64,000 nucleotides of DNA from Myxococcota bacterium. Lineage in GTDB: Bacteria; Myxococcota_A; SURF-8. A model generated the notes under the pieces. That model searched no databases. It was not told the origin of the DNA and saw only the letters and a list, made by a program, of their open reading frames with translations. The translations under genes were made by a program, and so were the position numbers. Of the stretch, positions 11,012 through 47,521 are shown piece after piece; position 1 is the stretch's first letter, and each line of letters opens with the position of its first letter. Where the stretch lies: the NCBI GenBank assembly GCA_965140415.1, contig OZ223209.1, positions 672,001 to 736,000 on the forward strand, written 5' to 3'.

Positions 11012-11197
11012 TAGAGTAGGTATTACTCATTTCTGTCCATCGAGTAATCACGATGTGCCATGGTCTCACGGAATGGAAATTCCGGAAGGCCGTGTGTAAC
11101 TACAAGAAGACACACAGCCTTCCACGATCTTCGATCGCGTAAGACTATGGCACACATTATTCAAATTAATGGCTAAAAATGATTGAGAACCGCTATA
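11012..11197 (+). mobile_element. ~185-bp structured dispersed repeat (MITE-like), copy A
   Basis: Near-identical to 34886-35072; TA ends (TAGAGT...AACCGCTATA); nested inverted repeats; no credible ORF. Confidence 0.85.
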
Positions 11198-33959: not shown

Positions 33960-34142
33960 TATAGCGGGTGTAACTCATTTCTGTTTATCACGCAATCGTG
34001 ATGTGGCATGGTCTCACGGAGTGGAAATTCCGGGAGGCCGTGTGTAACCTTAAACCCCACACAGCCTCCCCATCTTCGATGGTGAGACTATGCCACACGT
34101 TATTGAAATCATTGGCTAAGTATGATTAATTGGACCCCTAAA
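33960..34142 (+). mobile_element. ~185-bp structured dispersed repeat, copy B (most diverged full copy)
   Basis: Starts TATAGCGGG; colinear with copy A, with compensatory substitutions in the stems. Confidence 0.8.
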
Positions 34143-34177: not shown

Positions 34178-34888
34178 ATGATTCCACTGCGAGACAACAT
34201 CCCCAGTCAGCGTTTCCCCTTTGTGAACTACTCGCTGATCGGAATCAATATTTTACTATACGTCTACATGTACTGGATCGTGGGGGATGCACAGGCGGAA
34301 GCATTGATGTTCGACTACGGTGTGGTGCCGCGACGGGTGATCTCCTGGGTACTGGGGGCGGATGTCGGTTGGGATATTTCGTTGTTGCCGTTGGTAAGCT
34401 ACATGTTCATCCACGGTGGTTTCCTGCATGTCGCGGGTAACTGTTTATATCTGTACATCTTCGGGGATAACGTTGAAGATTATTTCGGCCATATCGGGTA
34501 TGTGTTCTTTTATCTGCTGGCGGGTATCGGTTCTGCGTTTATTCATCTTGCCATTAACTGGGACAGCACCATGCCGACTGTCGGTGCCAGCGGGGCCATT
34601 GCCGGAATCATGGGAGCGTATTTTATCCTCTACCCGCATGCTAAAGTCGTCACCATCGTGCCGATTCTGATTTTCATTCAGATTATGGAGATCCCGGCAG
34701 TGATTTTCCTTGGATTCTGGGTGTTTCTACAGTTCATTTCGCTGGGCGGGCAGGGCGTCGCATGGTGGGCGCACATCGGAGGCTTTTTCGTCGGCATTTT
34801 ACTGCTGCAACTCTACAACCGTTTCTTTCGCTTCAAGCCGCCCCGACCCCCTTCGGGTGGACCGCGCAAGGTGATTCATATCAATTAG
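34178..34888 (+). CDS. Rhomboid family intramembrane serine protease
   Basis: MFIHGGFLHVAGN, FGDNVED, VGASGAIAG (catalytic Ser) and AWWAHIGGF (catalytic His). Confidence 0.95.
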   Translation: MIPLRDNIPSQRFPFVNYSLIGINILLYVYMYWIVGDAQAEALMFDYGVVPRRVISWVLGADVGWDISLLPLVSYMFIHGGFLHVAGNCLYLYIFGDNVEDYFGHIGYVFFYLLAGIGSAFIHLAINWDSTMPTVGASGAIAGIMGAYFILYPHAKVVTIVPILIFIQIMEIPAVIFLGFWVFLQFISLGGQGVAWWAHIGGFFVGILLLQLYNRFFRFKPPRPPSGGPRKVIHIN

Positions 34889-35072
34889 AGTTAGGTAATA
34901 CTCATTTCTGTCCATCGAGAACTCACGATGTGCCATGGTCTCACGGAATGGAAATTCCGGGAGGCCGTGTGTAACCACAAGAAATAACACAGCCTTCCAC
35001 GATCTTCGATCGCGTAAGACTATGGCACACATTCTTAAAATTAGTGGCTAAAAATGATTAAGAACCGCTCTA
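34886..35072 (+). mobile_element. ~185-bp structured dispersed repeat, copy C
   Basis: TAGAG...CTCTA termini; begins at the rhomboid TAG stop; near-identical to copy A. Confidence 0.85.
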
Positions 35073-36478: not shown

Positions 36479-38491
36479 ATGATTTTCGGGTGCCCGAATT
36501 GTAATGCAGACTGCCCCATACCGGATGACAAAATTCGCAACCGCATACTGAAGGTCCGCTGTCGGCACTGCCATCACATTTTCTATGTCAAAGATCCCGA
36601 ACTCGATAAAAGAGTTACAGCCAGCGTGCAAGCGCCGCCGCCGCCGGACGATGACGATGTGTGGTTCTATGCGGCAGGAGATCAATCCGCCGGTCCCGTT
36701 TCGGTTGGCTCGATGCGCATTCTTATCGAAAGCGCGCAGATTCTTTCTTCCACACTTGTCTGGCGTGAAGGTATGGAAGCCTGGACGCCGCTAGCCGATG
36801 TCCCGGAACTAACCGCCATTCTACAGGCGATTGCCTCGCCGCCACCTCCCGCCGATGCCCCGGTCGCTCCCGGTTTGGAAGATATGGAACCCTCGGAAAA
36901 GGCGGTGGAAATCCAGGAAGAAGTCGATCCACTGGCCTTGATGGAACAGGAAGCGGACAGCGACATTTCCGTAGATCTGGATCAGGAAACATCCTCGGAT
37001 TCCGATGCGGAAGATGAAGAAATCGAGCTGGAAGCGGACGAGATCGAGTTCGAAGAGGATGCGGGCGGCGAAATCGACGATACCGTAAAGGCGCTGATGG
37101 AAGAAGAAGAGCGCCTGCAACAGGAACGCGAGAAGAAACGAGAGCAGTTCGCCAAGCGTAAAGAGGAAGAAGAGAAGGCGAGCAAGGCCGAAGAAGAAGC
37201 CAAGCGCAAAGAGGAAGAAGAGAAAGCTCGCAAGGCCGAAGAAGAGGCCAAGCGCAAAGCGGAAGAAGAGAAAGCTCGTAAGGCCGAAGAAGAGGCCAAG
37301 CACAAAGCGGAAGAAGAGAAAGCTCGCAAGGCCGAAGAAGAAGCCAAGCGCAAAGCGGAAGAAGAGAAAACCCGCGAGGCCGAAGAAGAAGCCAAGCGCA
37401 AAGAGGAAGAAGAGAAAGCCCGCGAGGTCGAAGAAGAGGCCAAGCGCAAGGCGGAAGAAGAGAAAGCCCGCAAGGCCGAAAAAAAGGCCAAGCGCAAGGC
37501 TGAAGAGGAAGAAAAGCGCCTGGATGCAGAACGGCGCAAGCTGGATGAAGAACGCAAAGCGCTGGAAGCGGAAAAGAAGCGCCTGGAAGAAGAACGTAAA
37601 GCCGCGAAAGCCGAGAAAAAGACAGAAGAAGCCGGCGGAGTTTTCGTTGCGGCAGGGAAATCGGTTGAAACCGCCGTTGAAGAGGCAAAGCTGGCCGAAC
37701 GCCGCCGCCTGGAAGAAGAGAAAAAGGCGGGAATGCCAATGGGCAAACTCGCTGTGGCCGTTTTGGTTCTGATCGGACTCGGAATCGGGTTCCTGCTGAT
37801 ATTCGAGAGCAACAAGGTAGAGCAGCCGCAGCCGTCCCCGGGCGGTCATGCGTTGCTTGAAGAGACGACGACGGATGCCAACCTGTTCATCCCGGAACAG
37901 AATCTGCCTGCGGAAGAGGGTGAAACACCTCCACCGGCGGAAGAAGTCGCCGATGAGACGGAACCCAAGTCCGAAAAGCAGGATCGCAAAGTGGCGGAGC
38001 AGATGAAGGAACTGGATTCCGAAATCCACGCCATGCGCAATGCGTTGGGAAAAAAGAAGGCCTCGCCCGCAGCGAAGTCGAAAAACGGCAAAAATGCCGA
38101 AACCAAGGCCGTGGCAGTGCCGTCTACGCCATCCGGCAGTTCCATGGCGATGCCGCCCGTTCCAAGCGCTAATGACGCTTTCCCCGAGGCCCTGCTACCC
38201 TCGACACTGAGCCAGAGCCAGATCAGCAGTGTAGTCAACCGGAATCTGGCGCGCATCAAATTCTGCTACGATTCGCAACTGCGTCGCAACCCGAATTTGA
38301 CGGGCAAAGTCATCGTGAATTTCACCGTGGAAGGTTCCGGCAAGGTCAGTTCGGTTGCCGTCAAGTCACGACGATTCCGTGGATCCTACCTGGACACTTG
38401 TGTGACCGGTGCGATCCGAAGCTGGCGTTTCCCGCGTTTTTCCGGCGATCCGGTCAGCGTGGACTATCCGTTTATATTCAGCGCTTTTTAA
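36479..38491 (+). CDS. AgmX/GltJ-like protein: zinc ribbon, GYF_2, acidic and E/K/R helical linker, TM, TonB-C-like domain
   Basis: CPNC...CRHC; WFYA..QSAGPV...LVWREGMEAW; single TM; IKFCYD...NPNLTGKV...WRFP...VDYPFIF. Confidence 0.8.
   Translation: MIFGCPNCNADCPIPDDKIRNRILKVRCRHCHHIFYVKDPELDKRVTASVQAPPPPDDDDVWFYAAGDQSAGPVSVGSMRILIESAQILSSTLVWREGMEAWTPLADVPELTAILQAIASPPPPADAPVAPGLEDMEPSEKAVEIQEEVDPLALMEQEADSDISVDLDQETSSDSDAEDEEIELEADEIEFEEDAGGEIDDTVKALMEEEERLQQEREKKREQFAKRKEEEEKASKAEEEAKRKEEEEKARKAEEEAKRKAEEEKARKAEEEAKHKAEEEKARKAEEEAKRKAEEEKTREAEEEAKRKEEEEKAREVEEEAKRKAEEEKARKAEKKAKRKAEEEEKRLDAERRKLDEERKALEAEKKRLEEERKAAKAEKKTEEAGGVFVAAGKSVETAVEEAKLAERRRLEEEKKAGMPMGKLAVAVLVLIGLGIGFLLIFESNKVEQPQPSPGGHALLEETTTDANLFIPEQNLPAEEGETPPPAEEVADETEPKSEKQDRKVAEQMKELDSEIHAMRNALGKKKASPAAKSKNGKNAETKAVAVPSTPSGSSMAMPPVPSANDAFPEALLPSTLSQSQISSVVNRNLARIKFCYDSQLRRNPNLTGKVIVNFTVEGSGKVSSVAVKSRRFRGSYLDTCVTGAIRSWRFPRFSGDPVSVDYPFIFSAF
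37151..37513 (+). repeat. In-frame 48-bp tandem repeat, about 7.5 units (AKRKAEEEKARKAEEE)
   Basis: GCCAAGC recurs every 48 bp from 37151. Confidence 0.9.
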
Positions 38492-38616: not shown

Positions 38617-38710
38617 TATAGTAACCCGTAATCATTTCTGGTCACGGATTCGAAGGTTTTGTGCCATAGTCTCACGCGAAAGAAGATCGTGGAAGGCTGT
38701 GTGTCTTCAA
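38617..38710 (-). mobile_element. Structured dispersed repeat, copy D (3' half only, inverted)
   Basis: TATAGT..TAATCATTTCTGGTCAC...TGTGCCATAGTCTCACGCG...GATCGTGGAAGGCTGTGTGTCTT matches the reverse complement of the right half of copy A. Confidence 0.8.
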
Positions 38711-38777
38711 TAGTAGCGGCGAGGCGTGAGCCCGCCGAAAAAAAACTATAATGACCGCAACCCAGGGAGGAAAGACC

Positions 38778-47339: not shown

Positions 47340-47521
47340 TGTACCGGTTCTTAATCATTTCTAGCCACAGATTCTGTTAGTTTGTGCCATAGTCTTACGC
47401 GATCGAAGATCGTGGAAGGCTGTGTATCTTCAACAAGTTACACCCGGCCTCCCGGAACTTTCATTCCGTGAGACCATGGCACATCCCGATTACTCGATGG
47501 GCAGAAATGAATGCTATCTTA
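47340..47521 (-). mobile_element. ~185-bp structured dispersed repeat, copy E (inverted)
   Basis: Reverse complement is colinear with copy A over its full length. Confidence 0.85.

Follow-up and report, generated by a model that had tools for sequence, protein, structure and literature searches.

In its excerpted text, PMC3116915 describes REPINs as inverted doublets of REP units, which are separated by a less conserved spacer and linked to flanking RAYTs. The same excerpts report that REP doublets form hairpins in single-stranded DNA or mRNA, and that compensatory changes are common in them. According to the excerpted part of PMC3479197, binding by TnpA_REP requires a 5' tetranucleotide together with a stem mismatch, it is abolished when the stem is randomised, and the protein makes no contact with the 5 bp closest to the tip. 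Among the TnpA-Y1 proteins, the available portion of PMC6006769 assigns long REPs headed GT[AG]G to subclasses 2.7 and 2.8.

Here we analysed 64,000 nt of a contig of a Myxococcota bacterium (the whole stretch is hereafter called the window), in which an earlier note, made from the letters alone, had read the core of a repeat at 11054–11154 as a covarying four-way junction and likely a strand-specific structured RNA. In the core, one unit of 37–43 nt is present twice in inverted orientation, forming a doublet. The four-way junction does exist as a fold, but the RNA reading is not supported, and the element is best read as a known bacterial repeat type (REP/REPIN-RAYT) and not as a new RNA gene. 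We estimate at roughly 0.8 the probability that the core is a REP doublet, or REPIN, of a RAYT tyrosine transposase clade, for which we infer binding, cleavage and mobility. Observed directly are the anatomy of the unit, the compensation within it, the strand symmetry of the doublet and, in a relative, a RAYT gene lying between two units.

The window carries five copies of the repeat. Copy A is a 186-nt extragenic repeat on the + strand (11012–11197, with ends TAGAG...CTMTA), which contains the REP doublet in its centre (11054–11154); its boundaries were defined from an alignment of 44 copies with their flanks and from the ends of 47 near-full copies. Copy B (33961–34131, +) belongs to a divergent subfamily, and its right unit shows the CATAGTCTCAC/GGGAGGCTGTG arm haplotype with the tip CATC-GAA-GATG. 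Copy C is full length (about 34887–35072, +), copy D retains only the right half (38619–38712, −; model positions 91–184) and copy E is near full length (47342–47519, −). A tandem array with 24-nt and 48-nt periodicity at 37055–37579 of the window, where 11 overlapping copies of a 189-nt reference were found, is unrelated to the REP doublet. A profile search of the whole 5.98-Mb source genome (G000) gave 156 matches, which were merged into 88 repeat loci, 50 on the + strand and 38 on the − strand, 47 of them near full length. Outside ORFs of at least 150 aa lie 84 of the 88 copies, though such ORFs cover about 90% of this genome. Across the 47 near-full copies, column conservation is highest in the two units (0.965–0.988) and lower in the spacer (0.855), which is the least conserved part of the core, and in the flanks (0.857 and 0.78).

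In copy A, the left REP unit (11053–11094) has its top strand on + and consists of the head ATGTGC (11053–11058), a 5' arm CATGGTCTCAC (11059–11069), the tip hairpin GGAAT-GGAA-ATTCC (11070–11083) and a 3' arm GGAAGGCCGTG (11084–11094). The spacer between the units (11095–11112, without strand) corresponds to what the earlier note had called the P3 loop, together with the top of P3. The right unit (11113–11155) has its top strand on −, with the head GTGTGC, the 5' arm CATAGTCTTAC, the 3' arm GGAAGGCTGTG and, within these limits, the tip hairpin GCGATC-GAA-GATCGT on the same strand. The stems proposed for the junction are all present: P1 (11054–11070/11138–11154), P2 (GGAAT/ATTCC with a GGAA loop), the P3 arms and P4. 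In terms of units, P1 is formed by the two 5' arms paired together and P3 by the two 3' arms paired together, while P2 and P4 are the own tip of each unit. In addition, the two arms within a single unit are complementary to each other, with the pattern ||:||:||| |.

This anatomy was followed in 248 units from 7 genomes, of which G000 was parsed whole and the six relatives only in fetched loci. The order is head, 11-nt arm (CATAGTCTCAC or near), variable stem-loop and 11-nt arm (GGGAGGCTGTG or near). The commonest heads are GTGTGC (57 units), ATGTGC (52), TTGTGC (30), GGGTGC (27) and GGGTGG (11), and the units do not share the GTAG (or CGTC) tetranucleotide that marks the base of canonical REP hairpins. 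The arm haplotype of the right unit of copy A is the commonest one, with 60 occurrences, and is present in G000, G004, G006 and G009; in the left unit of copy A, a G>A change that is private to it disrupts arm pair 9. Whole-genome parsing of G000 returned 139 units, namely 54 inverted doublets and 31 singlets, the latter mostly truncated copies, one or two of which look spurious.

Within the arms, position 4 is A-T in 161 units and G-C in 66, position 9 is C-G in 150 and T-A in 88, and position 7 is C-G in 227 and T-A in 9. Three irregularities are nearly fixed: a T.G at position 3 (232 units), a T.G at position 6 (222) and an A.G at position 10 (231). The relevant compensatory changes lie inside the units, at arm positions 4 and 9. 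The left and right units of a doublet usually differ in haplotype, which explains the four "defects" of the junction, namely the G.U and C.A of P1 and the C.A and G.U of P3.

The tips behave differently from the arms, since 102 distinct tip hairpins were counted among the 248 units, with stems of 4–7 bp in 215 of them. The proposal that the fold is kept while the sequence changes therefore holds for P2 and P4. An exact-pattern search of five relatives gave the same picture, with 40 matches in which the invariant boxes enclose about 20 different stems, all fully paired; the reversed pattern, run as a control on the same five relatives, gave no match.

The two pairing models were compared on one alignment of 26 core sequences from four genomes. 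In the unit-hairpin model, pair 12–41 is AU in 14 sequences and GC in 10, and pair 76–98 is UA in 21 and CG in 4. As for the covariation claimed for the junction, P2 and P4 do show many double changes, but in P1 the pair 17–98 is standard in only 3 of the 26 sequences, in P3 the pair 41–70 is standard in 16 of the 26, and at 12–103 the changes are mostly one-sided. Both structures beat all 500 shuffles in percentage of paired bases and in covariation score, and these overall scores cannot separate the models because P2 and P4 are common to both. It is the site-by-site pattern that separates them, as the conserved mismatches of the junction are pairs, with compensation, within the units. On the other side, when the single strand of copy A is folded with DNA parameters, the junction reaches −26.9 kcal/mol versus −11.1 kcal/mol for two separate hairpins, and this greater stability of the junction for the whole strand counts against the REPIN unit-hairpin reading.

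The individual changes on which the junction had been based fared unevenly. The variants attributed to copy B (GTGGCA/TGCCAC, GCCTCCC, CCATC/GATGG and GTGAGAC) are all there, as are the one-sided G-T changes in copies B and E. In P1, the changes of copy B exist, but in an alignment read by eye most of the copies that vary at GTG[C/G]C are uncompensated. Of the two copies said to repair the C-A mismatch of P1, copy B indeed carries GTGAGAC, but copy D is devoid of the 5' strand of P1 and cannot repair it. Finally, GGGAGGC/GCCTTCC, taken for a change in P3, is the family consensus, and it is the GGAAGGC of copy A that is private (1 of the 136 units counted in G000).

A BLAST search of 41 genomes found the element in four, G000 included. 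Beyond G000, most matches cover only query positions 43–146, corresponding to the junction, at 73–78% identity, and one copy of G004 matches query positions 37–166 at 82%; in other genera the core sits in repeats with quite different flanks, so that conservation is confined to the core. A covariance model derived from 26 cores matched in 7 of the 10 genomes of the order, which are the same 10 genomes that make up the whole class. With E up to 1e-12 and stricter filters, the model matched in 5 of 141 genomes of a phylum sample, all five within the class. None of the 131 genomes outside the class matched at E up to 1e-12, a threshold at which two genuine holders also drop out, so that weak relatives elsewhere may have escaped detection. 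An exact 20-mer scan of the genome contigs gave no match. In the fragmented assembly of the relative G002, contigs C39, C143, C170, C29 and C73 end within a few bases of a unit with the tip GGCCC-GTA-GGGCC, which suggests a high-copy repeat breaking the assembly.

The link with an enzyme comes from G004, in which a 172-aa ORF (L117 3033–3551) lies directly between two inverted units 550 nt apart (L117 2993–3035, +, and 3584–3620, −). The earlier note had proposed looking for ORF-bearing variants with an insertion in the P3 loop, and the outcome is positive, as the RAYT gene of G004 occupies precisely this spacer position. Against NCBIfam NF047646 (REP_Tyr_transpos, cut-off 80) the protein reaches 89.9 bits, and against Pfam PF01797 (Y1_Tnp) 30.7 bits; it shows a HUH motif (EHVH), a WQ motif and YIHNNP. 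A profile of its orthologs finds PDB 4ER8, the E. coli TnpA_REP, with E 2.7e-21, ahead of the IS200/IS605 transposases; a PDB search with the single G004 sequence returned no chain at E up to 0.01.

Orthologs at 49–56% identity are found in G000, G002 (two), G003, G006 (two) and G007. In seven of the eight ortholog loci a hairpin headed GGGTG[C/G] is present on both flanks, with stems that differ by genome and always pair, and at the eighth the pattern used detects a headed hairpin on one side only. The stem type of the doublet studied here flanks the RAYT gene only in G004, that is in one of the eight ortholog loci. Moreover, G001 and G009 have doublets but only distant homologs of the protein (at most 31% identity), and G007 has an ortholog but no doublet match with the covariance model. 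Because of these mismatches, repeat and enzyme are strongly linked by their architecture, but the correspondence is not one-to-one.

In the source genome, the reading frame of the ortholog (54% identity) is interrupted by a TAG at a position occupied by Tyr in five aligned relatives, and the gene is flanked by a sister REP type (CATGGGC..GCCCATG) and not by the type of the doublet described here. An intact cognate RAYT was not found in G000, where the closest ortholog is the one with the stop. The head-plus-arm motif of the sister unit occurs 65 times in G000 at no more than one mismatch, and by our own reading of the list about 50 of these are real copies. The sister family has the same head and arms of the form GGGTGGCATGGGC..GCCCATG, with the tips GAAGC..GCTT or TAACC-GCA-GGTT; examples are at G000:C1 4582341, 850791 (114 kb past the end of the window) and 4512949. 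Several sister copies abut truncated 186-nt repeats immediately behind CACGGT, and this may point to a site favoured for insertion or recombination.

Other candidate partners were considered and set aside. G000 has an intact, classical RAYT (G000:C1:4046707–4047213; L054 2008–2514; 181.7 bits on NF047646), which was rejected as the cognate enzyme as it is flanked by GTAG-headed REPs of its own (GTAGGTCGGATTAAA..TTTAATCCGAC); related GTAG REPs occur near L049, L122 and L127. Likewise, the gene between two identical doublets in G001 is a RAYT of the GTAG type, so the doublets are not its own. Two half-copies that could have represented the end of a longer element proved to be chance neighbours. 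One lies beside an IS200 at L050, which has its own hairpins, and the other beside an IS4-like element at L048, which has its own 53-nt inverted repeats. The latter (L048 4053–5442; G000:C1:1589852–1591241) encodes a 400-aa protein with DUF4372 and DDE_Tnp_1 and adjoins a solitary REP unit. Five IS200-type Y1 matches with identical scores (G000:C1:224848, 598394, 886009, 1390075 and 5746978) are read as copies of one IS200, whose hairpins are subterminal at the one locus examined, L050; three further IS200-like genes are present elsewhere. Beside the IS200 copy at L050 (4165–6133; G000:C1:1390764–1392732) are genes for a RloB-like protein and an AAA_21 ATPase, a pair that we take to be typical of defence genes of the OLD/abortive-infection type.

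Among the described systems, those closest to the present one include the REPINs of Pseudomonas fluorescens SBW25 (Bertels and Rainey 2011). As far as the excerpted account of the latter extends, both are extragenic inverted doublets of a palindromic unit with a less conserved spacer, both number tens to hundreds of copies with a predicted hairpin in single-stranded DNA or mRNA and compensatory changes, and in both a RAYT gene is bordered by inverted copies of the same unit. Within the same limits of the source, the differences are that the head here is GGGTG[C/G] instead of GTAG, that the unit is longer (37–43 nt) and combines a fixed basal stem with a distal stem that varies freely, that the copied unit in G000 is 186 nt long with extra inverted flanks, and that the host belongs to an uncultured lineage in which the G000 ortholog is interrupted by a stop. 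With the REP/BIME of E. coli and TnpA_REP (4ER8; Messing 2012, PMC3479197, in its excerpted part), the unit shares an imperfect hairpin with a 5' head, a conserved stem mismatch and unread tip-proximal pairs, in addition to the profile match of the orthologs. That TnpA_REP leaves the five tip-proximal base pairs uncontacted fits a unit in which, as observed here, head and basal arm are fixed and the tip is free. The protein differs from E. coli TnpA_REP in the HUH context (EHVH) and in the Y motif (YIHNNP).

The REP dimers and TIRtrons of Di Nocera et al. (2013, PMC3733652, as covered by the available excerpts) resemble the present doublets in being head-out (HH) dimers with a conserved spacer, in including heterodimers whose partners differ in stem and loop, and in that the partners may fold separately or as one large stem-loop; the families named in those excerpts are GTAG- or CGTC-tagged or are GGGGWSAS repeats, and the head found here fits none of them exactly. 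The WQ and Y---NP motifs place the protein in class 2 of the TnpA-Y1 proteins as outlined in the excerpts of Quentin et al. (2018, PMC6006769), and the sister units read GTGG just before the stem, similarly to the REPs that the same excerpts give for subclasses 2.7 and 2.8. The 186-nt repeat is also similar to ERIC/IRU and to bacterial MITEs, in that these are palindromic intergenic repeats of 130–190 nt with internal hairpins. The core differs from ERIC in being a dimer of a RAYT-type hairpin common to 7 of the 10 genomes of the class. To our knowledge, no unit of ERIC flanks a tyrosine-transposase gene.

A strand-specific structured non-coding RNA (a ribozyme, a protein-binding or a guide RNA) whose gene is spread by a mobile element would account for a core conserved across genera inside different flanks, for the strong covariation of P2 and P4 with a junction that beats all shuffles, and for a P2 loop that is GNRA in most copies. 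It would also agree with the very stable fold of the 101-nt + strand, which reaches −52.3 kcal/mol versus −23.4 ± 3.4 in 200 shuffles (z −8.5, no shuffle being as good), but the opposite strand folds as well or better (−56.5 kcal/mol, z −9.4). On the top strand of the unit, the loops of the 248 units are mainly GAA (82), GGAA (56), GGA (20) and GAAA (8), and both the purine (GNA/GNRA) loops and the T.G wobbles belong to each unit's own top strand, hence to opposite strands of the doublet. One transcript would therefore contain GGAA in P2 but TTC in P4. The copies are not biased in orientation, either with respect to neighbouring ORFs in tandem (21 in the same direction, 17 in the opposite one, p 0.63) or with respect to the replichore (Fisher p 0.51), and this, together with the loops and wobbles on opposite strands, argues against a strand-specific RNA. 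Two halves that are inverted copies of one unit, conserved non-pairs of the junction that become compensated pairs under the unit model, the existence of solitary units and a pair of units separated by 550 nt with a gene in between all speak against it as well. No Rfam family matches at the gathering score across the window and, over the element, no match is credible at E up to 10, the best being mir-7359 with 16 bits against a gathering score of 90. Altogether, we consider the RNA explanation very improbable. Equally small is the chance that the hairpins are to be explained, whatever their origin, by exaptation by the host for gene expression, as terminators, mRNA stabilisers or sites for nucleoid proteins. 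The copies are extragenic, with 32 of 87 lying between convergent ORFs, and such roles are reported for REPs and REP dimers in the excerpts of PMC3733652 and PMC3479197, but the copies decay, with a core identity to the consensus of 81–100% and seven cores equal to it among the 47 near-full copies. A function of this kind is compatible with the REPIN reading and does not compete with it.

An ordinary TIR-type MITE, for example of the IS630/Tc1-like type with a TA duplication, would instead have a DDE transposase acting at its ends and a passenger interior. This appears unlikely, if somewhat less so than an RNA gene. In its favour, most of the 47 near-full copies of the 186-nt repeat are bounded on each side by TA and have imperfectly inverted ends, and in other genera the same core occurs in repeats with other inverted ends. 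Indeed, that the copied unit in G000 is the whole 186-nt repeat, with TA...TA ends like those of a TIR-type MITE, counts against the REPIN reading. Against such a MITE, the outermost ~12 nt are among the least conserved columns, and the interior units are the most conserved. None of 10 candidates in G000 matched DDE_3 (PF13358), and neither a longer element with the same ends nor paired end motifs outside the repeat loci were detected. In the public contigs of two DNA runs, a break falls inside copy C and copy B is bridged without differences, and no empty site or joint skipping a copy was seen at either of them. The suggestion of the earlier note that the core is more than the inert interior of a MITE is supported, and its fallback, a single-stranded mobility intermediate, fits the REPIN reading.

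For a REPIN, the following mechanism can be proposed by analogy with E. coli TnpA_REP and IS200/IS605 TnpA. The top strand of each unit, as single-stranded DNA, would fold into one long imperfect hairpin with a GGGTG[C/G] head (GTGTGC or ATGTGC in G000), a basal stem of 11 positions, in which the T.G wobbles at 3 and 6 and the A.G mismatch at 10 are fixed features, a free distal stem and a GNA/GNRA loop. The RAYT, a HUH/Y1 tyrosine transposase, may bind the folded strand at its head and imperfect basal stem and would not read the distal stem or the tip; by cutting and rejoining single-stranded DNA, it could then copy the doublet to new extragenic sites. The four-way junction follows automatically from the inversion of the units, as an alternative and thermodynamically favoured fold of the whole single-stranded doublet. 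Given the in-frame stop in the closest RAYT ortholog of G000, the 88 copies are probably a decaying population or one served in trans.

In conclusion, our data settle the identity of a conspicuous and highly structured repeat of this genome, whose lineage is distant from the Gammaproteobacteria, the group in which most work on REPINs has been done; biologically, the repeat belongs to a known class and is ordinary within it. The sequence-level picture, with a fixed head and imperfect basal stem and a free distal stem, matches the TnpA_REP co-crystal. In addition, an apparently covarying four-way junction can arise from two inverted DNA hairpins recognised by a protein, which calls for caution in the search for RNA motifs. 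Among the matches listed, no paper linking RAYTs or REPINs with Myxococcota was found by title. More tentatively, and with considerable doubt, the doublet might represent an undescribed REP family with a non-GTAG head (GGGTG[C/G]) and a two-tier hairpin, in which a heterodimeric doublet, its left and right units differing by a compensated pair, has been kept across two families of an uncultured class, and of which the 88 copies of G000 have outlived a stop-bearing RAYT. If this were true, it could be asked whether transposition has the cruciform four-way form as its intermediate instead of the single hairpin, and G000 would offer a natural case for the decay of a REPIN population or for its service in trans by a paralog.
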